Assembly: GCA_027317865.1 (NCBI GenBank)
Contig: DAHVQG010000009.1
Location: 73,443 to 137,442, forward strand
Length of the DNA stretch: 64,000 nt
Direction of reading: 5' to 3'
DNA from: Bdellovibrionales bacterium
GTDB taxonomy: Bacteria > Bdellovibrionota > Bdellovibrionia > Bdellovibrionales > UBA1609
In this document: piece after piece, positions 3,157-47,699 of the stretch
Layout of the letters: every line of letters begins with the position of its first letter
Position numbering within the stretch: the stretch's first letter is position 1
Program-made: the position numbers and the translations under genes
Notes under the pieces: generated by a model
What the model was told of the DNA's origin: nothing
Seen by the model: only the letters and a program-made list of their open reading frames with translations
The model's database searches: none

Positions 3157-5490
3157 TCAGGCAATTTTTTTGGTTTGCTCTTGTAAAGCGTATAATTCAT
3201 TTTTAAGATTTCTGATTTCGCCACGCAGTTTCTTTTCAATTTTCTTTGCTTGTTTGAGTTTATCCTCAAGATCCGAACGAATTTGCGAATTGGCTTCAAC
3301 TTTACGGTTTAAGCTGGAAGCTTCAGTCGTCATTGTTTCGTATTTAAGCATCGCTTCATTGGTCTTAAGAATATAAGTTTGCCTATCTTTTCGGAGTTGG
3401 TCGGCAATTTCAGTCAGTTTACTAACGGTTTTACGCATTTGCTGCAAGCTGTTTGCGCTGAGCTCGGATTTTGTCTGAGCGGCGCGACTTGTTTTCTTTA
3501 ATGCTTCGATTTCGCCAGCAGCACGATCCATTTTATGGGAGAGGTGTTTGTACTTTTGCTGAGCTTCGTTGAGTTTGCCGGTCAAACTATTTACCTCTGT
3601 TTTCAAGCCTCGGATTTCTTCTTGTTTTATTGCAAGCGAGTTTTGAATTTTCTTAAATTCGTCGTCCTTCGCCTTTACTATTTCATCGAGGCCCGTGTTG
3701 TCTTTCAAAAGTTGCAATTCTTTCGCCGTGAGATTCGCCTGCTGCTGTAGATTTGCAACGGTTTCTTTATAGTTTTCAATTTCGTTCTGGCTCGCTTTTA
3801 ATTGGTTGTTTAAGTTATCCAGCGTATCGTTGTAGGTGTCTTCCGCCGTTTGAAACATCTCAACTTTTTCTTCTAGCCCCGTGTTGAGTTTGAAATATTC
3901 CGCGTTCTGCTCCTCAAGTTGATTTGATAATTGGCTGTTTTTCTCATTGAGGGCGACCAATTCTTCGATTTTAAGATTGCTCGCGTCGATGAGTTTCTGA
4001 GAATTTTCAAGTTGCGCTTTTAAAACTTCATTCTCCGTTTGGAGCGGCCCGGACTCAACAGTAAGGACGGTATCATCGCTTAAGGCGGCACCGTCTTCGC
4101 TTGTTACATTGCGAATATCCCCAAGATTTGTAGGTGCATTCTCGCCCGGCGCGGTCTCAACGGAGCGGGCGACATCATTACTAATAGCTCCGATGTCAGC
4201 AAGAAGTTGCGAGTCGACCGCAATATGGTCACCGCCCATATCATCGGTAAGTTTGTTCGAAACGTTGTGCAATGTATCTGAATTTGCTTTTAAATCGTTA
4301 AATTCGACTTCGAATTTCTGAAATTCTTTGTCAATTTCTTTGGCCATCAGCATATCGCCGCCAGAGAGATTTTTCTTCGCCTGAATTTGAAACACGTACC
4401 ATTTATCACGAAGCGCTTTAAGTTCTTGGCAATTCGTCTGGTATTTTTTATTGAGGTCTTGAATTAACAGTTGTTGTTTGATGATTTGGTGCTGAAATAT
4501 TTTGACGTCATCGCTGGCTGCGGTCATCACGTCATCCAAGTTTAACCGCGCGCTCATATATTCTGGAATTTCATCGTACATGCCAACTTGCGGATCTAAC
4601 GAAATGCGCTGACCGAGGGTTTTTTCAACTTGCCGGATCATCTGGCTGACCGTTTTTGAAACCATTGCGTGCGGATTTTCTTTTGCAACCTGGGCAAAGG
4701 AGGCGATCTGGCCCTTTAGTGAGCGAAGCTTTTTTCGCAATTTTCGAGGGTTAAAATTTTTGCTCTCCGAATGCGTGTTGAGCTCCAGCATTTCCGTTTC
4801 GATAGTTTCGGCCATTTGCTTAAGAAGTTTATTTTCAGGCTGATCGAGGGAGCCTTTGATGATAGCGATTTGTTCGCGAAAATGACGACTGAGTCCGCTG
4901 ATTGTTTCGGGGTCTATGACGTTGTTTTTTGTGAGTTTATCCTCAACGCGAATAAGTTCGTCATTAATATGAAGCGTACAATCTTCGATAACTTTGCGGT
5001 CAGAAAGTTCTTTTATGAGTCCGCGCACGGCCGTTTTTTCTAAGTCCGACACTTCAGATTTAATCGCGCGAATGACGTCGCCAATCGGCCCGTCGATTTC
5101 GTCTTCGACGGTGATTTTGCCGAAATCTTGCGCGGGCGATGAAAGGGATTTTAATTTATATTCAGATTGATCCGGCAGGCCTTCGATTTTGCCATAGTCT
5201 TTATTTTCTAGAATTTCTTTACGATAAACCTCTCCTTCTTCTGAAGTTAAGAAATTATCGAGATAGCCAAAATAGGTTTGTTTGTCTTCGACGCGCACGT
5301 AAATCTTATCCATCGAGTGGCCCTGAAGCTTTTCAAATTTATTTTGCGATAAAGTTTCATTTTTGCGCACCCAGAGGATGATCCGATTGCTTTGCCGAAG
5401 TAAAATATAACAGTCAAAAGATAACGGATGCTCCGGGCGAAGACATTTGACGTAAACCGGAAAGAATTCTTCGCTTCTGAATTCGGACAT
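3157..5490 (-). CDS. Large coiled-coil protein with N-terminal globular domain
   Basis: 777-aa ORF; C-terminal half is heptad-rich in E/K/Q/L; N-terminal ~80 aa resemble the segment that precedes HD-GYP domains, but no HD-GYP motif is present. Confidence 0.7.
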   Translation of the reverse strand: MSEFRSEEFFPVYVKCLRPEHPLSFDCYILLRQSNRIILWVRKNETLSQNKFEKLQGHSMDKIYVRVEDKQTYFGYLDNFLTSEEGEVYRKEILENKDYGKIEGLPDQSEYKLKSLSSPAQDFGKITVEDEIDGPIGDVIRAIKSEVSDLEKTAVRGLIKELSDRKVIEDCTLHINDELIRVEDKLTKNNVIDPETISGLSRHFREQIAIIKGSLDQPENKLLKQMAETIETEMLELNTHSESKNFNPRKLRKKLRSLKGQIASFAQVAKENPHAMVSKTVSQMIRQVEKTLGQRISLDPQVGMYDEIPEYMSARLNLDDVMTAASDDVKIFQHQIIKQQLLIQDLNKKYQTNCQELKALRDKWYVFQIQAKKNLSGGDMLMAKEIDKEFQKFEVEFNDLKANSDTLHNVSNKLTDDMGGDHIAVDSQLLADIGAISNDVARSVETAPGENAPTNLGDIRNVTSEDGAALSDDTVLTVESGPLQTENEVLKAQLENSQKLIDASNLKIEELVALNEKNSQLSNQLEEQNAEYFKLNTGLEEKVEMFQTAEDTYNDTLDNLNNQLKASQNEIENYKETVANLQQQANLTAKELQLLKDNTGLDEIVKAKDDEFKKIQNSLAIKQEEIRGLKTEVNSLTGKLNEAQQKYKHLSHKMDRAAGEIEALKKTSRAAQTKSELSANSLQQMRKTVSKLTEIADQLRKDRQTYILKTNEAMLKYETMTTEASSLNRKVEANSQIRSDLEDKLKQAKKIEKKLRGEIRNLKNELYALQEQTKKIA

Positions 5491-36452: not shown

Positions 36453-36902
36453 ATGATAAAGTCACTCATTGTTTTATTTATGGTCACAGTTTTCGCTGGA
36501 GCCGTGCATGCCGCCCAAGTCACTCCTGTCTTGAGGTGTTTGCCACCAGCAACTTCCACACTATTTGGGTTTCAAATCTCCAGTCTAAAACAATGTGTGA
36601 ATTCACCAGAAGGGCCGATTTGTAATAACAACGTTGCATTTACGGCACTTCGGTTTGACCCGCAAACACAAACGTGGCAAGCCACGCAGTTCGTCGATAT
36701 GGCTGCGTTTTTTCAAGTCAATAAGCAAAAACAGACCTTTGAATTTCATCAAGTTGGGAGCAAAAACTTTGCCGGAGAACACTGCGATGTGTCTGTTCAT
36801 GGTCGCCATACCGTGATCAACTTAGATCTTGGTACTGGAGACCAATATGGAATGCTCAACACCCATGGAACAGTAACCAACTACTCTTGCGATTTTCTGT
36901 GA
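36453..36902 (+). CDS. Secreted Cys-containing hypothetical protein
   Basis: Signal peptide ending VHA; AAGGGA RBS. Confidence 0.6.
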   Translation: MIKSLIVLFMVTVFAGAVHAAQVTPVLRCLPPATSTLFGFQISSLKQCVNSPEGPICNNNVAFTALRFDPQTQTWQATQFVDMAAFFQVNKQKQTFEFHQVGSKNFAGEHCDVSVHGRHTVINLDLGTGDQYGMLNTHGTVTNYSCDFL

Positions 36903-37192
36903 GAGCTATAATCCCGTATTGTTACGAATAGTCGCGGCTCAGGAATGGCTTCGGCTGATCATTGAGTCTCGCTGCTCGCCAAGCTCGCGGTACCTTTCAG
37001 TCACGCAAAATGCGCGCCGTTAACTCGCGCTCACTTGCGCCAACAGTCCAAATCTTGCCATTGGGTCCGTTTCAGAACGAGACGGTATATGCAATGAACG
37101 AGCACTCCAGATTAAACACGACGGCCAGAAGTCTGGAGCGAAATGCCACGGCATTTGAGATGAGCGCAACGCTATAAGTAGCTACGATGGAG

Positions 37193-37855
37193 TTAGATTT
37201 TTGTGAAGTTGCCCTGAATCTTATCGAAAAATGTTCGAAACGCCGAACCTGGGGGCAAATATTTGTCGACCGTGCTTTGGGCGTCAGATGATGTGAGTCG
37301 GTCGGCTTCTTTCCAGAGATCCTCAAAAATGTGTGCCGTCGAGCCGACGGCCAGAGATGGAAAGGCACCGTCGTCCACTTCGCCGAAGGCGATGACGAGC
37401 ATCCGCAAGAACAGATCTTTGAGCGCCCGTTGGTAGGTCGGTTCATGAAACCTGCCGCGCAAGTCAGTTCTCTTTTTCAGTTCGCGGGTTGAAAGAGGCG
37501 AATCCATTTCAAGCTCGTCGAGAAGAAGCCGGGCTGTTGCGCTTAAACCTATTTTTAAATTGTGCGTCTGCTTCAGCCTTGCCAACATCGCCGTGAAGAC
37601 GTCTCGCGAAAAGAAAGTGGCCCGGCCCTGATACCATTTTGAATAAACAACGTCGCGACAATCGGAGAGCTCTTTCATGAGCGTCCACATTTTAAAGACG
37701 CGGTTGTCGCCGCCTTCGTCCCATTCCCATTTCATCTTCGTGCGGGGATGAAATTCACTCCAGAGCGAGAGCGGCACCTTCTGATTGGCGCGCGGAAAGA
37801 CCAGGAGAATGCCACGCTTGTTTATTATCTCAATCGCTTTTGCTTTATCGCCCAT
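37193..37855 (-). CDS. AlkZ/YcaQ-related winged-helix protein
   Basis: GILLVFP..PLSLW, VVYSKWYQGRATF, PLSTRELK, RALKDL pattern; GAGG RBS. Confidence 0.6.
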   Translation of the reverse strand: MGDKAKAIEIINKRGILLVFPRANQKVPLSLWSEFHPRTKMKWEWDEGGDNRVFKMWTLMKELSDCRDVVYSKWYQGRATFFSRDVFTAMLARLKQTHNLKIGLSATARLLLDELEMDSPLSTRELKKRTDLRGRFHEPTYQRALKDLFLRMLVIAFGEVDDGAFPSLAVGSTAHIFEDLWKEADRLTSSDAQSTVDKYLPPGSAFRTFFDKIQGNFTKI

Positions 37856-37980
37856 AAGACCTCGTCGCGTAGTGAATGATCCTAAGCCGACGAAACGCCG
37901 AAATCAAATCGAGGTCGACTCGTTGAGTGAAAACTTTTAATTTTGCAAATAGCCTTCTATAAAGAAAGTAGGAGATTATT

Positions 37981-38511
37981 TTGGAACAAGTTGAAGACCG
38001 AAAAGACATTTTGTTCAGCACTCCACGTTTAGTCTGCCGTCGCATCGACACTTTTGACTTAGAAGCGTTGGAGCACGTCTATGGAGATGCAGAAGCCATG
38101 AAGTGGGTCGGAGATGGTCAGCCACTCACCCATGAGTTGTGCTTAAAATGGATCGACGTCACTAAAAAGAATTACATTAAACGAGGGTACGGAATGTCAG
38201 CTCTGGAACTGAAAAGCTCGAAAGAAGTGATCGGATTTTGTGGAATTGTTCATCCTGACCAGCAAAAAAATCCTGAGATCAAATATGCATTCCTCAAAAA
38301 ATATTGGGGCGTTGGTTTTGCAACGGAAGCCGTCTCAGGACTTTTAGAATATGGGTTTAATGAACTTCAACTTTCTGAAATCTTTTCGACAACATTTGAG
38401 GCGAATACACTTTCGAACAACGTACTTCGTAAAAATGGCTTTGAACAGATTGATCGTCGATCAGAAGCAGGCCTGCCAGACGTTATAATTTGGAAAATTT
38501 CACGGATTTGA
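37981..38511 (+). CDS. GNAT (RimJ/RimL-like) acetyltransferase
   Basis: TPRL, IGFCG, PEIKYAF..YWGVGFATEA, N..S..VL.K.GF. Confidence 0.85.
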   Translation: MEQVEDRKDILFSTPRLVCRRIDTFDLEALEHVYGDAEAMKWVGDGQPLTHELCLKWIDVTKKNYIKRGYGMSALELKSSKEVIGFCGIVHPDQQKNPEIKYAFLKKYWGVGFATEAVSGLLEYGFNELQLSEIFSTTFEANTLSNNVLRKNGFEQIDRRSEAGLPDVIIWKISRI

Positions 38512-38568
38512 ACCTCTGATTCTCCGCCCGCTGGCATCAAGAGCCTATGGTTCGTGCAAAGTATCGAC

Positions 38569-38576
38569 TGGTGCCC
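38569..38576 (+). repeat. Left att core TGGTGCCC (copy of tRNA 3' end GGGCACCA)
   Basis: Identical to 46693-46700; both copies have GGTTC starting exactly 20 nt upstream (38549, 46673). Confidence 0.65.
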
Positions 38577-38721
38577 GTTGCCCTACTCTAGACGAGTATT
38601 TGGTTTGGGTCGAAAGTTACCCAATCCAATGGTGGGAACCTCGCTTTAATCTGGCGGAGCTGGCAAAACGCCGCAGGATTAGCCGAGACACTCCACTTAA
38701 CTCAAATACAGGAGGGTAAAC

Positions 38722-38910
38722 TTGTATCGAATTTTATTTATTTTGATGGTCCTTGCATCCATTAAGCAATTTGGGCTCAGGCCAACCGATTTGCTTGGGT
38801 GCCATTCGCCCGCATGCGTGCAACGGGTAGAAGCGGCTACCCGTCGCGTGCTAAAGATTGATTGGAAGCCAATTGTGGTGTTTCCTTACGCGGCGAAACG
38901 CTTCCATTAA
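38722..38910 (+). CDS. Small hypothetical protein (element-encoded)
   Basis: TTG start after GGAGGG RBS; hydrophobic N-terminus, CxxxxC, IDWKPI.VFP. Confidence 0.6.
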   Translation: MYRILFILMVLASIKQFGLRPTDLLGCHSPACVQRVEAATRRVLKIDWKPIVVFPYAAKRFH

Positions 38911-39011
38911 TTAATGCAACCACTGCCTAACGGTTGGCGCCATGAGCCTTTCCTTTTAGTGATCGAACCTTTATAAGTAGATTCCCTGTAATTGATTCTA
39001 GGAGCCGACAA

Positions 39012-39377
39012 GTGAATTTTTGGGAATCTTTCGGAACCGGTGTTTTAGGCAGCGTGGTCGCCTCGGTTATTATCTCAGTATTTGCGGTCCGTTTTTTAAA
39101 GCGCAGCCTGCACGATAGAATAAATGAGTTAATCAATGCTGATCAAAGCGCAAGGCGAATTAAAGAGTCCATCGCAGGAGCCCTATCGTTTTTAGATCGC
39201 GCTCAAATTAATATACACACCCAGTTGGTAGACCCCAACATTAATAAAGCTGTCCCAAACTGGTTCAATAGCGAAATTAATGAGATCCGCATGTCAATCA
39301 ACACAGCGGCGAGCGAAGTTGATTCATTGAGAGGCAGCCTCGATACTATCGCAAGAGCCGGGAGAAAATTACAATGA
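39012..39377 (+). CDS. Hypothetical protein, N-terminal TM plus helical region
   Basis: GTG start after AGGAG; overlaps the next gene by ATGA. Confidence 0.6.
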   Translation: MNFWESFGTGVLGSVVASVIISVFAVRFLKRSLHDRINELINADQSARRIKESIAGALSFLDRAQINIHTQLVDPNINKAVPNWFNSEINEIRMSINTAASEVDSLRGSLDTIARAGRKLQ

Positions 39378-39853
39378 CAAACAATTTGAAAGACATGCTA
39401 ATTCAGGGGCTAACCAAAGTTAGTCAAGAGAAACAAGCTGCCCAACAAAATGCGAGAAAATTTGCTGATGCATATCAGTCTTTAGTGGCAGAGCTTCGGG
39501 AATTTACTTCCGGGGCGCCCGTTCAAATTGCGGCGAGCAATATGACTTGGGATGTATATGGCTCATCGATTCCGATGACACCTTTAAATTTTTTCGCTGA
39601 TAATGCGGCCCAATTTGCTCTGCAACCGCAGATCCAAACGGGCGGTGCTGCACCTTCAGCCACAAGCTTTAAGCTAATGGTGACTGCAACCAGGATAGCT
39701 GAAAGTTTTCCGAGGGTAATTTATTTTAACCCGACGAATTCAACCTGGACATCAAAGGATCCAGGAACTTTATCGGGTCTAATTGGTCAGTTTAACATTG
39801 ACCCTGAGCAATTCAAAAGAGCACTGGTTTACGCGCTTACGGGCCAACAATAA
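39374..39853 (+). CDS. Hypothetical protein
   Basis: 159-aa ORF; GGAG RBS; translationally coupled to the upstream ORF. Confidence 0.65.
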   Translation: MTNNLKDMLIQGLTKVSQEKQAAQQNARKFADAYQSLVAELREFTSGAPVQIAASNMTWDVYGSSIPMTPLNFFADNAAQFALQPQIQTGGAAPSATSFKLMVTATRIAESFPRVIYFNPTNSTWTSKDPGTLSGLIGQFNIDPEQFKRALVYALTGQQ

Positions 39854-39865
39854 AATTTGCGGCAA

Positions 39866-41284
39866 TCATGCAGATAGGCGCTCGTCTATAATTGCACTTA
39901 TTCGTTCGACTGCACCCTTAATTGTAAGTGCCTTTTTTGGATTGAGTACAACCAGCACCGTCTCAGACTCCGCTTTATCTCTTAACGACGAGATAATTTC
40001 GGAGTGGTTTGTAACTTCTTGTAATCGACCATCGGTACCAACCACAAAAACATTATCATCACTTGATTTGTACATTGTGCTTTTAAGCTCAACGATCGCA
40101 TAGTCGACGTCGACTTTCATCCCTTTTGCCTCAAGTTTTTCCTTAATTACTGACTCTTTTCCTTTTTCTACGCGATAATTGTGCGACACTTTTCTGCTCA
40201 AAATCGAGCTGGCAATCTCACTTGCGTACTTTAGTTTCTTATTTTGGGACTTAACCCGCGCCAAAACTGAAACGAGCGACCAAATAGAATCCTCAGTCAT
40301 TTGAACGTACGCATCTAAATTGCTTTCAATGAATCTAGTTCTTGCATGTTTGTTCGGCAGTCCCTTGGCTCTTGTGAGAAGTGTCCCCATTGCAATTAGA
40401 TATTCTGGAATAAATGGCTTAATTTCGCCATTCTGCCGAAGATGCTTCATTTCTTCGACTATAAATCTGATTAGACGTTCAATCATATACTCTAAAACTT
40501 TCACTTTTCGGTGGAAGTAAATGGTTCTATTCATAAGCTGCCTTGCGATCACGTAACTTTCATAGGTTTTAACACCTTTGTAGTTCAGCCCCAGGGTCAG
40601 CGGATTTTTTGGATCATGCTTGATAACCGTGAGGGAATTGATTAGATATTGGAGGTCTATTTTCCCAATAGCGGTGCCACTGAAGTGGGAGTCTCTCACC
40701 AAATAATCCATTCGATCGACATCGAGTTGCGACGAGACAATTTGTTTTAAAAATCTGGGCATGTCCGATGATGATTCTTTGCTAATTATATGGGAAACGG
40801 TATTAACATCTATATTTTCTGCTAGCAGCGAAGCAGAAATACTCGACTTTTTCGCCGATATTATGGCGGCGCTCCATTCCTCATGTAGAGGGGCGTTTTT
40901 AAAACCTGTAAGATCCTTTAATACATTTTCAAAAGAATGAGAAAATGGCCCGTGACCAACATCATGTAGAAGCGCAGCAGCAATAACCTCTTTACGATAT
41001 TTTCTGATTTTGTTTTTTAGAGATCTATCGCACTCCTGCTCGATTAAATGCTCGACCACCTGGCGCGCAAGGTAAGCAGCACCTAAACTGTGGCAAAACC
41101 GAGAATGGGTTGCCCCCGGAAAAACATAAGACGCCAATCCGAGCTGTGAAATTCGACGCAATCGCTGAAACTCGCGTGAATCGATGACCGCCTTCATCCA
41201 GGAGCGAGTCTTGTTATCGCTTCCAAAATTCATGACCTCATGCACGGGGTCATTCACAATTATGTTAAACGCCACTTTGCCCAA
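39866..41284 (-). CDS. HD-domain phosphohydrolase, SAMHD1/YdhJ-like dNTP triphosphohydrolase family
   Basis: DPVH, FQRLRRISQLG, PGATHSRFCHSLG, LLHDVGHGPFSH, LDVDRMDYLVRD, IYFH; GGAGG RBS before TTG. Confidence 0.88.
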   Translation of the reverse strand: MGKVAFNIIVNDPVHEVMNFGSDNKTRSWMKAVIDSREFQRLRRISQLGLASYVFPGATHSRFCHSLGAAYLARQVVEHLIEQECDRSLKNKIRKYRKEVIAAALLHDVGHGPFSHSFENVLKDLTGFKNAPLHEEWSAAIISAKKSSISASLLAENIDVNTVSHIISKESSSDMPRFLKQIVSSQLDVDRMDYLVRDSHFSGTAIGKIDLQYLINSLTVIKHDPKNPLTLGLNYKGVKTYESYVIARQLMNRTIYFHRKVKVLEYMIERLIRFIVEEMKHLRQNGEIKPFIPEYLIAMGTLLTRAKGLPNKHARTRFIESNLDAYVQMTEDSIWSLVSVLARVKSQNKKLKYASEIASSILSRKVSHNYRVEKGKESVIKEKLEAKGMKVDVDYAIVELKSTMYKSSDDNVFVVGTDGRLQEVTNHSEIISSLRDKAESETVLVVLNPKKALTIKGAVERISAIIDERLSA

Positions 41285-41529
41285 GTATCCTCCGATGCTG
41301 CCGTTTGATCGGCTGATTTAGAGCTTATATGTATGGACTTGGGTCTATCCTGATGATTGATACTAACCGAAAACTGTATATGCGGCCGGGTCCTTGACAT
41401 GTGGTCCGAGCGTGAAGTACAGCTGTTCAATCAGCTTTGATTGGCTGAAATACCGAGACCCTTGACTGGGCCTTTAATGCTTGAGTGCAACGACAAATGT
41501 GCGAGGACGCACATCGGAAAGGATGACAT

Positions 41530-42081
41530 ATGTCTAACGACAACATTAACAATATTGATTCTCTATTAGTAAATCTTGAAAACGATTCCCAGAAACTAAC
41601 CGACAAGTTGACGGTGATTTCCGAGAAAATCAAAAGGGTCGAAAACGCCCTTCAGACCCTTAACATCGGCATAGACGTTTCAATGGAATTCCAAGCCCAG
41701 CCATTATCTTCAGACGAAAGAACTGCGGTAACGGAGCGTATTGTTCCCGATTGGCAGTTCATCAATGCCTACGCGAAAGACGGGATCCGATGGGCAAGAA
41801 ACGAGCAATCCGGCAAGTTTCGCTTGTTGTACACGCGGACAATTTACGAAGACCGGATATCACTCGGATACGGTGACGCCCCAAAAGGGACCTATTCAAC
41901 CTCAGCGTATGGCTGCGCTCAGTACCCCGACGGAGTCACAGTTACTAAGCCTTTGATAGAATGTTCAATTGACGTTCGACTACGCCTGTGGCCGGAACTC
42001 CCGGCTTTTCTAGCTAAGCTTCATGGCGCTATCGAAAAGATCATTTCCGTCGAAAAAATCTCCATTAACGGAGGTTTTTAA
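41530..42081 (+). CDS. Hypothetical protein with N-terminal coiled coil
   Basis: AAGGA RBS; stop directly abuts the next ATG. Confidence 0.65.
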   Translation: MSNDNINNIDSLLVNLENDSQKLTDKLTVISEKIKRVENALQTLNIGIDVSMEFQAQPLSSDERTAVTERIVPDWQFINAYAKDGIRWARNEQSGKFRLLYTRTIYEDRISLGYGDAPKGTYSTSAYGCAQYPDGVTVTKPLIECSIDVRLRLWPELPAFLAKLHGAIEKIISVEKISINGGF

Positions 42082-42987
42082 ATGGTTGACTCAGAATTTT
42101 TGGATCTGATCTATGACTCTGCCCTCAAATCATTCTGGCGAATTAAGGCTCTAAAACGTTTTTTATCGTCAATTGGGATATCTGACGCATTCCTAACTGG
42201 TAACGGCGAGAAAGAACGGAAGCGCGATGTTTTGGACCGTGTTTTTGAAAAACTGCGCAAACACCCTAAAGGGCCAGCAGTATTTGAAGCGATGGCAACT
42301 AGTTTATCAGAGCGCACTGAATTTCCTGACTTGCAAAATTGGGAAGATTCCGATGACAAAATAAGGGAGGCTACATTAGCCAAGCTTAAACTGCGGAAGT
42401 ACCTGAAAAGGCGAGAAGATAAAAGAAAGGATGAAAAGGAACAAGCAGCTGCACGGGAGCGAGATGCAAAACGTCGTGAAGAAATCGCGGCCCGGAATAA
42501 CTCGCTTAGTAAATTGGAACATCGATTTAATGAACTAGCCAACAAAATTGGTACTGCTGCCGGAGGATACGAATTTCAAGAATGGTTTTATGACCTGCTC
42601 GATTTTTACGAGATTCAGTGCCGCCGTCCATATACGGTAGACGGGCGTCAAATTGACGGCTCCGTAACTGTAAGTGGCACTACCTATCTTGTTGAATTAA
42701 AATTTACTCAAGCGCAAATCGGCGCGACGGACGTGGACAGTTTGTTTAGAAAAGTTGAAACAAAAGCAGACAATACTATGGGGATTTTGGTTTCAGTTGC
42801 AGGGTACAGCTCAGTTGCAGTTAAAGAAGCGTCAAGAGCAAAAACTGTTTTGTTACTATTAGATCATGGACACCTCATCGCGGCCCTACGCGGAACAGTT
42901 GATCTAGTGGACGTAATCGAGCGTGTTCGTCGACATGCCTCACAAACGGGCGAAGCATTTTTACCAATACAAGAATTTGGAGGGTGA
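42082..42987 (+). CDS. Restriction endonuclease-like protein (C-terminal Mrr-type PD-(D/E)xK domain)
   Basis: GYEFQ ... QIDG ... YLVELKF ... GILVS..GYS..A; GGAGG RBS. Confidence 0.8.
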   Translation: MVDSEFLDLIYDSALKSFWRIKALKRFLSSIGISDAFLTGNGEKERKRDVLDRVFEKLRKHPKGPAVFEAMATSLSERTEFPDLQNWEDSDDKIREATLAKLKLRKYLKRREDKRKDEKEQAAARERDAKRREEIAARNNSLSKLEHRFNELANKIGTAAGGYEFQEWFYDLLDFYEIQCRRPYTVDGRQIDGSVTVSGTTYLVELKFTQAQIGATDVDSLFRKVETKADNTMGILVSVAGYSSVAVKEASRAKTVLLLLDHGHLIAALRGTVDLVDVIERVRRHASQTGEAFLPIQEFGG

Positions 42988-43314
42988 TATAATGGCGGTA
43001 CCTCGCCGGTTTGTGAAAATCCAATATCTTTTCTGTTGATGGTTTCCTCTTAGCAGTAATGAAATAAATCTTAACTTCTGTTAAGACGCAAAAGCTGCTA
43101 TAATTCGAATAAATAGTTATTGTTTTTCTGCTTGCATCGAGTCAGCGATTAATTTGACGATAGCTTGGTTTCTTGCTACTAATATATTGTCTCCTACTAC
43201 TTTTTTACTGCTAGTTTTCGACTAATTAATTGAGCAATTGTTTCTCTGCCCGGCTTTGGCCTTAGTGCCTCCGCTTATCCGCTATTCCTAAAAACAAAAA
43301 TAAAGGAGGTTCTT

Positions 43315-43821
43315 TTGGATAAAGAATCAACGGATAGGTTTACCCTCACGTTATGGGGGTCGTTTGTCGGCTCGTGGCTACTCGTCTTTCTCATGATCAT
43401 TAACGGTGCCGCAAGCTCTAGCAATCCCGCTTATGTGATCATCTCGGTAATACGCTGGATGTTCACCGCTGGCGTCGGCGTTTGGTGCCTCGTTTGGGTG
43501 CTTTGCAAGTGGTTCCCCGAACACTTGGAGGCGTCAGCTAAAGAGGTGGAACGCAACAAGCAAGAGTACGAAAGCTTGATCAACCGGGAGGTCGAGCGAC
43601 GGCTACAAGCAATCCGCGCAAGCGAGTGGAAAGCAAAAGAAGCCGAAAGGAGGCAAAAAGAACGCAGAGAAGCGCAAGAACGCTATCGGAGGGAACTCGA
43701 AGAAAAATGGCGAAAAGAGTTTGAGAAAAAACTCGAAGCTGAAATTCACGCGGTTCGTACCGCAAGCGACGCCACCCAAGAAGCCGTGAGCGACTTCGTC
43801 GATGACGGAGGTGTTGCATGA
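43315..43821 (+). CDS. Two-TM plus charged coiled-coil protein
   Basis: AAGGAGG RBS before TTG; two hydrophobic helices then an E/R/K-rich helix; overlaps the next gene by ATGA. Confidence 0.7.
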   Translation: MDKESTDRFTLTLWGSFVGSWLLVFLMIINGAASSSNPAYVIISVIRWMFTAGVGVWCLVWVLCKWFPEHLEASAKEVERNKQEYESLINREVERRLQAIRASEWKAKEAERRQKERREAQERYRRELEEKWRKEFEKKLEAEIHAVRTASDATQEAVSDFVDDGGVA

Positions 43822-44567
43822 TTGTAACTCAAAGAGACAAAGCGCTGTTTGAAAAACTCCATAGCTATGCGGTTATGACGACTCGTCAGGTGGCAAATAC
43901 GGTCTTCCCAGGGATTGAACTCACAACGACTCTTCGTCGCCTACGCAAACTCGAAAGAGATAACTTTATAAAACGAAATACCGGGCTATCGACTTATGAG
44001 CACTCATGGACGCTCACCGAAAAGGGCGCAAAGCTTGTTTCAGATCGTCCACCAAGATGGCAACAATCGCGCTATTTACTCGAACACGATACTAAGCTCA
44101 CGGCTTTACGACTCGCACTCGAAAGCGCCGGCGTTGCTCAATCGTGGATTCCGGAGCATGAAATCCGCTTCAAGGTTGCCTCAAGGCACGGACTCGAAGT
44201 TGCAAAAGATAAATTGATTCCTGATGGGATCATGGGCGTTGATTGGCAAGGATCGAAAGAGTCGATTGCGATTGAAGTGGAGCTTCACGGCAAAAACTCG
44301 CGTCGGTATTTCCGCAACTTTCACCAGTACAAATACAAGCAAAACATACTTGGCGTGTGGTATCTGACCCCAACTCCTACTCTTGCGCGGACAATCGAAA
44401 AGCTATGGATCAGAGAAGTCGGCATGAATCGAAAACCGTTTTTCTACTGGTCTTTGATCGATGAAGTGATTGAAAAACCGCTCGAAGCAATCGTTCGCTC
44501 AGGAAAAGATCGCAATGCCTTACCGCTTATTTGGCGACCTGGAGGTGCGCTTGCAAAACTAAACTAG
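43818..44567 (+). CDS. Replication-relaxation (Replic_Relax)-like protein: wHTH plus PD-(D/E)xK-like domain
   Basis: TQRD..L, RRLRKL, LTEKG, LEHD, W..E, IPDG, IAIEVE...K...Y. Confidence 0.7.
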   Translation: MIVTQRDKALFEKLHSYAVMTTRQVANTVFPGIELTTTLRRLRKLERDNFIKRNTGLSTYEHSWTLTEKGAKLVSDRPPRWQQSRYLLEHDTKLTALRLALESAGVAQSWIPEHEIRFKVASRHGLEVAKDKLIPDGIMGVDWQGSKESIAIEVELHGKNSRRYFRNFHQYKYKQNILGVWYLTPTPTLARTIEKLWIREVGMNRKPFFYWSLIDEVIEKPLEAIVRSGKDRNALPLIWRPGGALAKLN

Positions 44568-44662
44568 GTTGCTCATACCCCTGCTCACCCACTGAGCAAC
44601 TTTGTCGCTTGTTTTTTGCTTTGAAGTTTACAATTAACTGCTGAATTTCGTTAATCAACTTG

Positions 44663-44767
44663 CGCACCCGCATTGTGAGATAAAAACCGCCTGCACCCGT
44701 GACCACCCTCCCCCTACAACGGTGAAGGGTGGTCACGGCTTACGGCGGTAAAAACAATGCGGGTGCG
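44663..44767. repeat. 105-nt nested inverted repeat (candidate oriT/origin)
   Basis: CGCACCCGCATTGT/ACAATGCGGGTGCG (14 bp), ACCGCC/GGCGGT (6 bp), CCGTGACCACCCT/AGGGTGGTCACGG (13 bp). Confidence 0.85.
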
Positions 44768-44824
44768 AAACAGAAAACAATTAAAGAAGAGGTTTAAGTA
44801 ACAGAATTAACAAAGAGGTAAAGC

Positions 44825-45010
44825 ATGAGAAAGAAATGGGAATGTACCCAAATCAATATCTGCTCTACTGCTATATCTGCTGAAGAATATAATCTACTAG
44901 TTGATGAATGGGCCCAGGCGGTCTATCGTCATTTTTGCCAGCTTTCGTCAGCTAAAATCGAGGCTCCTGAAACTCAAATGCCATCCGTGGCAGAAAGTGC
45001 AGGTGCCTAA
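44825..45010 (+). CDS. Small protein immediately upstream of the recombinase
   Basis: GAGG RBS; stop TAA abuts the recombinase ATG. Confidence 0.6.
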   Translation: MRKKWECTQINICSTAISAEEYNLLVDEWAQAVYRHFCQLSSAKIEAPETQMPSVAESAGA

Positions 45011-46714
45011 ATGAACACAAATAAAAATAAGCAATTTAAGATTGGGCTTTATATTCGGGTCAGTACCGAAGAACAGGCCGAAAATCCTGAAGGCTCAATT
45101 CGCAATCAAGAAGATCGTCTTCGAAGTGCTGTCGAATATAAAAATCGCTATGGTAGTTTCGGTAAGATCCAAGGCGTTTATGTCGATGCCGGCATCTCAG
45201 CAAAAGACATGAAGCGACCCCAGCTTCAAGAACTACTTAAAGCCGTTCGAGCCCAAGAGATTGATCTCGTCATGGTGACAGAACTTTCGCGTCTTTCGCG
45301 TAACACCCGCGACTTTATCGACATGTGGGACATGATGCGCGATAATGGCTGTCAGTTTACAAGTCTTCGCGAAGACTTTGACACGACAAATGCGGCCGGC
45401 GAACTTGTGCTTTTTCAGCTCATGAACTTGGCACAATTTGAAAGACGCCAAACATCTGAGCGCGTTCAAGCCAACATGCTCGCCCGCGCAGCCCGCGGTC
45501 TTTATAACGGCGGCATCGTGCCGGTCGGCTACAAACTGATACCTGACAAGCCTGGTTACCTTGAGATCGATGAGCTAATGGCGGCAATGGTGCGCGAAGC
45601 TTATGCGGCTTACTTACGCGAAGGGTGCCTGTCGAAGGCAGCGCTTTGGCTCAATGAGCAAGGTTATCAACTAAAAAAGCAAACCCAAGGCGGTGGCAAT
45701 TATAAACGCTGCGGTCATTTTACGACTGACAACCTTCAAGGAATGCTTCGCCTCAAAGCTTACGTCGGCATTAAAACCTACACGCAAAAAGGTGAAACCA
45801 AAGAAGTGAAAGCGGTTTGGCCGCCGATCATTGACGTTCACACCTTTAAACGAGTCAATAAACAACTCGATTTAAATAAGGCGAATTACAAGCCTTATAA
45901 AGAAGGTCGCTTCCCTTATCTTTTATCAGGCATGGTCCACTGCAAAACTTGTAAAAGCATGATGCCTGGCAAATCTGCGACCGGTTCGAGAGGCAAAATC
46001 GGTTACCATGAGCACAGTTGGAACACCAAACGAGACTCAACTCTAAAAACAAAGCAATTTCAATGTAACCCGATTCGCATCCCTTCAAGAAAACTCGATC
46101 CGCTCGTCTGGGAGAAAACCGTGGCTTTCGTTACCGATCCGATATTTATGGGCCAGGTTCTTGAAAAAGTACGAAAGCATCACGGCAATAATCCGCGGCA
46201 AAAAGATCGCGAGCGCATCAACGCTAAAATTCGAAGTATTCAAACCCAGGTCGATGCACTGGCCGAACGACTCTCGGAGTTACCTAAGAACGTGTCGGCT
46301 GGACCGATCTATAAACAAATGGCAAAGCTTCAAGAAGTTATGGCCGAGTATGAGAATCAGCTTAAACAATTACAAAACGGTGGCAGAACGACTTACGACC
46401 GAATCGTGGGGCTTGATACCCTCGAATCGTTTGCTCGCTACTACAAAAACTTCGTGATGAATAACACAACGTTTATTCACCGAAAGGAACTCGTTAAAAA
46501 GTTTATTAGCCGGGTTGAGGTAAGTGAGAATTCCGTCGACATCCATTTCATCGCTGATAAAGATTACTACAGGCATGAGCTCGGCCTCCTTGCATCGCGC
46601 AAGGGGGCTCGAGGCCCTTATGGGCGGCCTCAGTTTGTGCCGTTAGAGCTTTCTGAAAATTCTGTGCGTGACGGTTCTTCTACCTTGACTCTTGGTGCCC
46701 CGGGCCGGACTTGA
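45011..46714 (+). CDS. Large serine recombinase (integrase)
   Basis: YIRVST catalytic Ser, SRLSR, AQFER, recombinase domain, LLSG.VHCKTC zinc ribbon, coiled coil; stop codon lies inside the antisense tRNA. Confidence 0.93.
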   Translation: MNTNKNKQFKIGLYIRVSTEEQAENPEGSIRNQEDRLRSAVEYKNRYGSFGKIQGVYVDAGISAKDMKRPQLQELLKAVRAQEIDLVMVTELSRLSRNTRDFIDMWDMMRDNGCQFTSLREDFDTTNAAGELVLFQLMNLAQFERRQTSERVQANMLARAARGLYNGGIVPVGYKLIPDKPGYLEIDELMAAMVREAYAAYLREGCLSKAALWLNEQGYQLKKQTQGGGNYKRCGHFTTDNLQGMLRLKAYVGIKTYTQKGETKEVKAVWPPIIDVHTFKRVNKQLDLNKANYKPYKEGRFPYLLSGMVHCKTCKSMMPGKSATGSRGKIGYHEHSWNTKRDSTLKTKQFQCNPIRIPSRKLDPLVWEKTVAFVTDPIFMGQVLEKVRKHHGNNPRQKDRERINAKIRSIQTQVDALAERLSELPKNVSAGPIYKQMAKLQEVMAEYENQLKQLQNGGRTTYDRIVGLDTLESFARYYKNFVMNNTTFIHRKELVKKFISRVEVSENSVDIHFIADKDYYRHELGLLASRKGARGPYGRPQFVPLELSENSVRDGSSTLTLGAPGRT

Positions 46715-46785
46715 ACCGGCACGCCCGTTATACACGAAGCCCAGGATTTTAAGTCCTGTGCGTCTACCAATTTCGCCACCGGGGC
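46693..46785 (-). tRNA. tRNA-Leu (anticodon TAA)
   Basis: GCCCCGG/CCGGGGC acceptor stem plus ACCA; D-loop TTGGTA; CAGGA-CTTAAAA-TCCTG anticodon arm; long variable arm; GGTTCAAGTCC T-arm. Confidence 0.95.
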
Positions 46786-46994
46786 CAAAGCGCGCGCGGC
46801 TCGTGCGTATTAAAGCAACTTGCGTCAGGCGCGAAAAAAATCGATATAATCCCAAACAATCGCGGCTTGATTGGCATAAGACAACCCTCGACTCATCGTT
46901 TAATCTACAGTTTATTCAGTTGAACGAACCGCCTCCCCGACCCGATCATCAAAACGAGGAGGCCGATAGCGGAATTAGTCCTATCGCGTGCTTC

Positions 46995-47699
46995 ATGAGC
47001 GATTTCTTTTGGGCCTTTAAAAAAACCAACAAATACTTCTGGCCAGTTCTGAAACGAAGCTGGGTTTGGTTATTAGGCGTAACAATTTGCAGTGAAGCCA
47101 TGTACCAGTATTTCACTTACATTGCACAAAATTATCGTCCGCCTTCCGGAGTGAATATTCCCGCGACCTTGGGCGATTTGGTTGCTTCACTCCTTGAGTT
47201 TATAGTCTTGACGATGCTCATCCCACAGCGAGTGATGGAGCTCGATCGTAATGACCCACCTCAAAGTTTTATTGGGTTTGCGAAGAAATACATCAAACCA
47301 CTTACAGCTGAGAGTCTGCGCGCGCTAGCCATGACGATATTGTGGACGCTCGTGTTTATTGTGCCCGGTATTTTTAAATATGTTCGCTATTTTTTGGTGG
47401 GATATGTCGTCGTGGCTGATCCGGAATACGAAGCCGGTAACGTCGATGCGCTGAAGGAGTCTAACCGGTTAGTCAAAGGTATCACGATCGAACTGTTCAT
47501 ATTCGTTGTCATTTTGATATTTCTTGACAGTTGGCAATCAACTCTGCGAGAACACGACCCCTTCACCACGGCTCCTGTGGTCGCTGCGCTGGCTACTGTT
47601 GTATTTTTCTTTTTGAATTATTATGCCAACGTCTTTCTTTTCATGCTATATCAGTCGCGCAAGTTGCGCTTGGGTCATTCGGTGACCGCCGAATCTTGA
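46995..47699 (+). CDS. Integral membrane protein
   Basis: Likely start ATG 46995; several TM helices; FIVPGI..Y.RY, ALKES..LVKG pattern. Confidence 0.7.
   Translation: MSDFFWAFKKTNKYFWPVLKRSWVWLLGVTICSEAMYQYFTYIAQNYRPPSGVNIPATLGDLVASLLEFIVLTMLIPQRVMELDRNDPPQSFIGFAKKYIKPLTAESLRALAMTILWTLVFIVPGIFKYVRYFLVGYVVVADPEYEAGNVDALKESNRLVKGITIELFIFVVILIFLDSWQSTLREHDPFTTAPVVAALATVVFFFLNYYANVFLFMLYQSRKLRLGHSVTAES

Follow-up and report, generated by a model that had tools for sequence, protein, structure and literature searches.

Does a mobile element that carries its attachment site inside its own integrase gene alter that enzyme when it enters or leaves a chromosome? The question is raised by a large serine recombinase (LSR) gene (45011..46714, + strand) in the window, as we call the whole 64,000-nucleotide stretch of contig DAHVQG010000009.1, from a Bdellovibrionales bacterium, that was analysed here. 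In its integrated form the gene encodes 567 aa with the Pfam domains Resolvase (PF00239; 2.9e-34, 118.7 bits), Recombinase (PF07508; 1.1e-12) and Zn_ribbon_recom (PF13408; 2e-4). Its open reading frame (ORF) passes through the short core TGGTGCCC (46693..46700, + strand; putative attR) and closes with ...LTLGAPGRT at a TGA (46712-46714) within the T arm of an intact tRNA-Leu(UAA) gene (46693..46785, - strand); the final four residues and the stop are antisense tRNA. The core, which is the complement of the 3' acceptor end of the tRNA including CCA, is present exactly twice in the window, the other copy lying at 38569..38576 (+ strand; putative attL). From that copy a frame of 47 codons (38576..38719, + strand) runs to a TAA at 38717-38719, and its phase with respect to the core is that of the LSR frame. 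Joined across the core, the two frames would give a product of 563 + 47 = 610 aa. An earlier note on this DNA had described this arrangement, and its positions for the ORF, the second core, the tail and the 610-aa product are all correct.

The answer that we consider quite likely is that this is a mobile LSR element with attP in its own gene, and that integration removes the tail. Under this reading the P arm of attP, GGTTCttctaccTTGACtct (46673..46692, + strand), lies within the LSR ORF and codes for a conserved GS..LT.GA peptide, the crossover would fall in the complement of the acceptor end and CCA, and the first ~25 nt of the split-off C-terminal tail would serve as the P' arm while coding for the tail's first residues. 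Integration would then cut the gene and truncate its product after GS..LT.GA: the 567-aa form would keep the canonical domains and end in four antisense-tRNA residues, the tail of 47 codons would be left without a start codon 8.1 kb away at the other island end, and the 610-aa form would be encoded only by the excised circle or by a tandem array. On this reading the interval 38577-46700 is an 8.1-kb integrative and probably mobilisable element that its own LSR placed at the 3' terminus of the tRNA-Leu(UAA) gene; the B' half of attB would consist of the acceptor end and T arm of this tRNA (GAAC 17 nt past TGG).

Because all canonical domains are kept, the truncated 567-aa enzyme is probably still a recombinase. 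It can be aligned end to end with 19 relatives, and the catalytic block RVSTEEQ is invariant across the 20 aligned sequences, the window's included; the alignment also lists invariant cysteines, and the window copy, as read from the alignment, retains these together with the RVSTEEQ block. Its zinc ribbon scores 22.1 bits against PF13408, under the cut-off of 25.3, compared with 29.6 bits in an unsplit relative, P0002. The structure model of P0002 has long helices at 354-420 and 428-459, in line with the coiled coil that LSRs carry within the zinc ribbon.

The core repeat does not by itself delimit such an island. An 8-mer repeat is within chance (1.2 matches expected per window, and two or more in 31 of 100 shuffles), and the window repeat search found neither a longer direct repeat between the island ends nor a second copy of the 3' part of the tRNA; the significance of the repeat comes only from comparison with other genomes. 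These numbers count against the reading given above. They would suit a chance match, the left end of the island being elsewhere and the tail unrelated debris, as two copies of the 8-mer in 64 kb are expected by chance. Such a coincidence is nevertheless very improbable: a junction in a same-genus genome sets the boundary exactly there, and at least 18 related islands have a homologue of the tail at their distal ends, in the same phase.

In that genome, G006, the sequence of window positions 38549-38576 is joined straight to tRNA-Leu(taa), with 27 of 28 nt identical, which means that the window has exactly 8,124 bp more than this junction, inserted between the two copies of the 8-mer. The empty-site sequence that the earlier note had predicted is present, with one mismatch, but it is not a virgin attB, its flank being the 3' scrap of a decayed LSR gene. 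The 20 nt left of the core (38549-38568) agree at 19 of 20 positions with the sequence abutting tRNA-Leu(taa) in G006, where they close a C-terminal remnant of ~77 aa from another LSR. G006 was rejected as a virgin empty site for this reason and still fixes the boundary. In the window only these 20 nt (38549..38568, + strand) are left of the older, decayed LSR gene, whose 3' end they formed; now the left flank of attL, they are a relic P-type arm and have GGTTC at -20 from TGG as P arms do, a feature that among the 19 left flanks is found only in the window and in L025. The alignments indicate that the window element entered beside the relic of an earlier element, making this a relic tandem array. 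Also rejected was the idea that the tail belongs to the left-hand relic: in G006 this relic adjoins the tRNA directly, without a tail, which shows that the tail was brought in by the 8.1-kb insertion. Another genome of the genus, G005, has the same tRNA-Leu(taa) with no LSR within 1.3 kb.

The split gene in related elements

The continuity of the frame was examined wherever the available DNA included the tail, the tRNA junction and either an LSR or the C-terminal remnant of one, which gave 19 distinct loci. At 18 of these the LSR frame is open across a tRNA-derived core of 6-11 nt into a homologous tail at the far island end, and the joined reading runs 40-100 codons beyond a point ten codons before the core; one core (TTGGTGC, in L087) was assigned by eye and is in phase. 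One of these elements lies in G024, a genome of the same family and another genus; the integrated and full-length forms of its enzyme would have 590 and roughly 660 aa. Its intact homologous island has an LSR 61% identical to that of the window, a Replic_Relax gene, a homologue of the small ORF that precedes the LSR gene in the window (orf61) and a tRNA-Leu(tag), and its 88-codon tail lies 11.2 kb from the LSR, in phase across the core TTGGTGC. Targets in the clade are tRNA-Leu (taa, tag and gag), tRNA-Arg (tct) and tRNA-Val (gac), and the core tracks the acceptor sequence of each tRNA.

Three genes are unsplit. P0002 encodes 631 aa in which the Resolvase, Recombinase and zinc-ribbon domains are followed by the tail, the L100 gene, for an LSR of 630 aa, contains a complete attP, and in L059 an ORF of 636 aa joins the LSR of one element to the tail of the next in a tandem array. 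Together with the 18 loci in frame, these genes bear out the earlier note's central claim, that attP lies inside the recombinase gene so that the two states differ in C-terminus. Only two of the 79 distinct tails (L059 and L100) are unsplit, a rarity that is expected if the elements are mostly integrated. Among 58 metagenome loci that carry the tail, the upstream frame could be followed in 56 and is long in two, L100 (615 codons, unsplit) and L111 (384 codons). The tail profile has matches in 110 of the 401 sampled genomes of the phylum; 107 pattern matches in viral contigs included none related to the tail. As judged from these comparisons of sequence, a large clade of LSR elements of the phylum is normally built in this way, with attP inside the LSR gene and a swap of the tail.

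The arms of the att sites, compared at the 19 loci with TGG as anchor, are also informative. The P arm has the consensus GGTTCG.atA.cTTGACAa, with GGTTC at -20 in 16 of the 19 loci, and codes for GS..LT.GA. In the P' arm, which codes for ..EEP, GAACC stands at +22 in 14 loci. On the tRNA side (B' arm), the T-arm GAAC stands at +17 in 18 loci as found by script and in the nineteenth by eye, and the other chromosomal arm has no consensus across the 19 loci. The outer motif of attB thus stands 5 bp further in than that of attP. A passage in Rutherford et al. 2013 describes the same inward shift of 5 bp for the outer (zinc-ribbon, ZD) motif of LSR attB sites, with an attP half-site of 25 bp (PMC3783163), and the pseudo-palindromic LSR sites are given there as ~50 bp for attP and ~40 bp for attB (PMC3783163). 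The att arms of the clade, so far as their aligned sequences tell, fit the attP/attB geometry of LSRs. Their symmetry centre falls between positions 4 and 5 of TGGTGC, within every shared core, and is the predicted place of the 2-bp staggered crossover.

Two tails lie 1-6 kb apart in each of L059, L063, L067, L074, L077 and L130, indicating tandem accretion at one tRNA; a left arm without a tail may explain why tandem arrays are frequent. A separate observation concerns L112 (812-1051 and 3650-4207), which holds the closest LSR relative seen, 82% identical over the first 190 aa. The tail of L112 is long (80 aa), of a different subtype, and only ~2.6 kb from the LSR start. It seems that elements exchange tails and LSR bodies with one another.

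The tail as coding sequence and as domain

The ratio of nonsynonymous to synonymous substitution rates (dN/dS) has a median of 0.22 over 316 pairs of long tails, and for the window tail it is 0.10-0.27 against seven short-tail relatives. These values indicate that the tail is under purifying selection at the protein level; conservation of this kind in homologues, which the earlier note had proposed to look for, is therefore seen.

A rival explanation makes the tail an independent small gene at the far island end, such as a helix-turn-helix (HTH) regulator or an excision factor, the in-frame position of which would be incidental. This explanation draws on three observations: some in-frame start codon stands upstream of 38 of the 79 distinct tails; the tail of G024 has an ATG 17 codons upstream (ORF 1590-1907); and a search of a representative library (1.84 billion) with the tail profile gave 527 proteins at E <=0.001, of which the best 150 are nearly all short, 54-203 aa. 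We nevertheless hold it to be improbable. Upstream of the remaining 41 of the 79, ATG, GTG and TTG are all absent, and the open frame there has a median length of 15 codons; in the window 29 open codons extend from 38576 back to a TAA at 38486 with none of these three codons among them, as the earlier note had said of nearby in-frame ATGs. Homology between tails always begins at the core and never at a start codon, and the left flanks are unrelated between loci. The short library proteins, among the best 150, have the tail at their C-terminus behind unrelated N-termini, just as gene calls running across attL would. The phase kept at 18 of the 19 loci and the three unsplit LSR-tail genes likewise argue for a tail that belongs to the recombinase.

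The usual tail is longer than that of the window, with a modal length of 85 aa among 84 distinct tails. An AlphaFold model of the tail (69 tails) has a confidence score, the predicted local distance difference test (pLDDT), of 77.9 and helices at residues 26-36, 40-47, 51-63 and 73-87; residues 1-25 have no secondary structure in the model, yet they contain the conserved motif EPL..W...YPIQW.EPR. In the full-length model of P0002, residues 518-583 have a pLDDT below 50, and the three-helix domain that follows (helices 588-625) has ~88-94 over most of its length. By these models, the usual tail is predicted to be a three-helix HTH of DNA-binding type on a disordered tether of ~65 residues.

Foldseek returned nothing at E <=0.001 for the tail model against the PDB, and its weak matches are all HTH proteins (DeoR, LuxR/NarL and sigma region 4; E >=0.29). 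In Pfam, long tails match only HTH_3 and HTH_11, at E 0.01-0.03 and below the cut-offs, and Pfam, PHROGs and PADLOC contain no curated family for the tail. When aligned by hhalign, the tail profile matched the unit repeated in P0005, a multi-HTH protein of 834 aa, with a probability of 95% (E 3.3e-8), and P0005 itself scores 1.3e-67 with Pfam HTH_7, the resolvase HTH, over seven stretches. The earlier note had read NLAELAKRRRISR in the window tail as HTH-like. This segment corresponds to the first helix of the family's HTH, but the other two helices are absent from the short tail of the window.

As a side observation, the tail profile also matches long proteins made of 4-11 tandem HTH units, namely P0005 (834 aa), P0104 (740 aa), P0106, P0140, P0133, P0151 and P0124. 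Another match, P0040, is a eukaryote-type multi-homeodomain protein and probably agrees at the level of the fold only.

A predicted complex of the tail with LSR residues 180-575 scored 0.56, the best control scoring 0.00; the runs agree in at least 87% of contacts, and the partner has a pLDDT of at least 71. Of 80 solved complexes 58 passed the mark, as did 2 of 110 mismatches, and since passes at or below 0.60 comprise only 7 of the 80 solved complexes and both passing mismatches, 0.56 is a weak pass. The prediction is a hint that the tail may dock on the LSR body.

Possible consequences and known systems

In the myxophage Mx8, 112 residues of the integrase are replaced by 13 on integration (IntP/IntX), and the integrated form is less active (PMC4701971, citing Magrini 1999). 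The likeness is close in that attP there too lies within the integrase gene and integration swaps the C-terminus. The Mx8 integrase is a tyrosine recombinase, however, whereas the enzymes of the present clade are LSRs that exchange a tail, usually a predicted HTH on a tether, and lose none of the canonical domains on integration. The tail-bearing enzyme is presumably made only in the episomal state. By analogy with Mx8, we tentatively suggest, as a view somewhat short of even probability, that loss of the tail alters activity or regulation, through integration efficiency or expression, most likely making for a quieter inserted element.

A bolder and rather unlikely proposal is that the tail is a built-in sensor of state. 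While the element is a circle, the tail would bind either DNA next to attP or the recombinase/zinc-ribbon/coiled-coil body and so hold the enzyme to integration; without it, the enzyme would follow different rules of synapsis. If this were true, the directionality of a serine integrase would be partly encoded by the topology of its own gene and not by a separate factor alone.

Canonical LSRs such as those of A118/LI, phiC31, Bxb1 and SPbeta have in common with the window enzyme the set of Resolvase, Recombinase and zinc-ribbon/coiled-coil domains and the att geometry. Their attP lies outside the int ORF, and a separate recombination directionality factor gives directionality; to our knowledge they have no C-terminal HTH, and their targets are not tRNA genes. 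In the integration-dependent immunity of the mycobacteriophages BPs, Brujita and Charlie, attP lies inside the repressor gene, the C-terminus of which is changed by integration through a tyrosine integrase. The logic is common to these phages and to the window element, but the gene that they split is the repressor. Integrases of the SSV1 type target tRNA genes, and integration splits the tyrosine integrase gene into two large parts. These enzymes, too, are tyrosine recombinases, whereas the window LSR loses an accessory tail only. The integrase of SSV1-type elements, which include fuselloviruses and archaeal plasmids, extends across attP (PMC4383910). As a serine recombinase, the window enzyme is not a member of the integrase families of Mx8 and SSV1, and works in a like manner.

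The closest printed precedent found is a remark in Ambroset et al. 2016 on streptococcal integrative and conjugative elements (ICEs) inserted in rumA: in silico, attR lies in the serine integrase gene, and the integrase of the excised ICE differs in length and C-terminus (PMC4701971). These ICEs target a protein-coding gene instead of a tRNA gene and belong to another clade and phylum, and the passage that holds the remark describes no conserved tail domain, att geometry or family-wide survey. Full-text searches, which exclude supplementary files, found beyond this remark no LSRs that target tRNA genes with an internal attP, and no mention of this tail. According to a passage in a 2014 database paper, targeting of the 3' ends of tRNA genes was unknown for serine integrases.

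The clade described here would be one of serine integrases that target tRNA 3' ends, with the T arm serving as a half-site. One-way insertion of DNA is done chiefly with serine integrases, the directionality of which is generally held to depend on a separate factor. In this clade, integration itself would edit the enzyme by removing what is, for the usual long tail, a predicted tethered DNA-binding domain. Mobile elements would thereby have a novel means of sensing whether they are free or inserted, and a ready pair of isoforms would be at hand. With the tail present in 110 of 401 genomes of the phylum, the clade is common, and annotation there must routinely miscall truncated integrases and orphan tail ORFs.

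The window copy and its surroundings

Besides the shortness of the repeat, several points weigh against the overall reading. At L113, the one locus out of frame, 22 nt are inserted in the P arm. The 19 loci are relatives, so that the 18 in frame are not independent trials and show maintained coding. The functional step, a change in activity, is drawn from analogy only. The four runs that hold the stretch are assembled contigs displaying the integrated form alone, with neither a circle junction nor an empty site of this element. In the window, the outer P' motif is GAGTA, not GAACC, which makes it the most divergent of the 19; the tail of 47 aa is without the HTH helices of most relatives; and L025 and L130, close relatives with short tails, lie in islands with a decayed LSR.

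The last four of these points also favour a rival that concerns this copy alone, namely that the split is real in the family but that the window element is a decaying, immobile relic with no swap of the C-terminus in this genome now. Its tail falls well short of the modal 85 aa, no joint appears in the assembled contigs of the four runs, and its left flank is itself the remnant of an earlier element. We regard this as a serious alternative, a little less probable than its opposite. Set against it are the full-length LSR, which aligns end to end and keeps the invariant residues by reading of the alignment; the low dN/dS of the short tail; the intact backbone genes for Replic_Relax and orf61; and the recurrence of short tails as a clade of 37-51 aa that comprises the window, L054, L134, L025, L130 (two copies), L132 and L122. 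Tails of this clade end after the first helix and a basic patch, and in L132 a short tail is combined with an intact LSR and an ordinary flank. The window copy may be on its way to immobility, and whether it is mobile at present is about evenly balanced.

The left junction is bridged in its integrated form by one contig of run X1 (37114-41172) and one of run X2 (36720-38739, 20 differences). Another X1 contig (depth 4.3) links 41071 to 46202 via 18 other letters and may come from a related element with other cargo in the same sample.

The genes of the island are arranged as follows. Two nt past the tail stop, orf62 (38722..38910, + strand) starts with TTG, its AGGAGG sitting inside the last codons of the tail. 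It matches no family in Pfam, PHROGs or PADLOC, is kept beside the tail in G040 and has 40% identity over 62 aa in L025. Two overlapping ORFs of 121 and 159 aa follow on the strand of the tail (39012..39853, + strand), again with no match in the three databases. The cargo comprises an HD-domain, dGTPase-like protein of 472 aa (39866..41284, - strand; Pfam HD 7.7e-13 and HD_assoc_2 9.2e-11, PADLOC dGTPase 1.1e-11) and, at 41530..42987 (+ strand), an ORF of 183 aa and, after it, one for an Mrr_cat protein of 301 aa that resembles restriction endonucleases (Pfam Mrr_cat 1.2e-6, PADLOC PDC-S02 4.1e-6). The pair formed by the HD/dGTPase-like gene (39866-41284, - strand) and the Mrr_cat nuclease-like gene (42082-42987, + strand) resembles anti-phage defence.

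The backbone begins with a 168-aa ORF and a 249-aa Replic_Relax (replication-relaxation) protein (43315..44567, + strand; PF13814 1.6e-8, 35.3 bits against a cut-off of 25.3), kept at 44% identity in the G024 island. Among the ORFs scanned with Pfam, PHROGs and PADLOC, no transfer genes beyond Replic_Relax were recognised; an integrase together with a replication-relaxation gene is the set expected of integrative mobilisable elements, which lack conjugation machinery. The small orf61 (44825..45010, + strand), which abuts the LSR start, has 46% identity to an ORF at the same position in G024 and no match in Pfam, PHROGs or PADLOC; it is a candidate regulator or directionality factor. The genes at both island ends are co-directional, and the circle would rebuild one co-directional unit running from orf168 through the LSR gene to orf62-orf159. 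A promoter and terminator scan of 37900-47000 gave no signal, with 10 promoter-like and 13 terminator-like sites compared with 12.2 and 10.4 expected.

Further observations concern individual loci. At L113 (around 4500-4700) a 22-nt copy of the left chromosomal flank stands between the P arm and the core, on the tRNA side, and forms a 30-nt direct repeat. In two genomes of the genus, one and the same P-type arm of 20-26 nt (GGTTCGTGCAAAGTATCGAC...) adjoins the tRNA-Leu genes taa and gag, at L027 (G006:C3, 1553-1874), L023 (G005:C13, 1327-1527) and L024 (G006:C2, 1501-1526); in two of these three sites the arm forms the end of a C-terminal LSR remnant, about 77-89 aa long. The tRNA-Leu genes of the genus seem to be strewn with decayed elements of a second LSR subtype. 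Beside the unoccupied tRNA-Leu(taa) of G005, L002 (G005:C160, 3187-3637) holds a pair of small ORFs, 76-87 and 117 aa long, which overlap and, by eye only, resemble a toxin-antitoxin pair.

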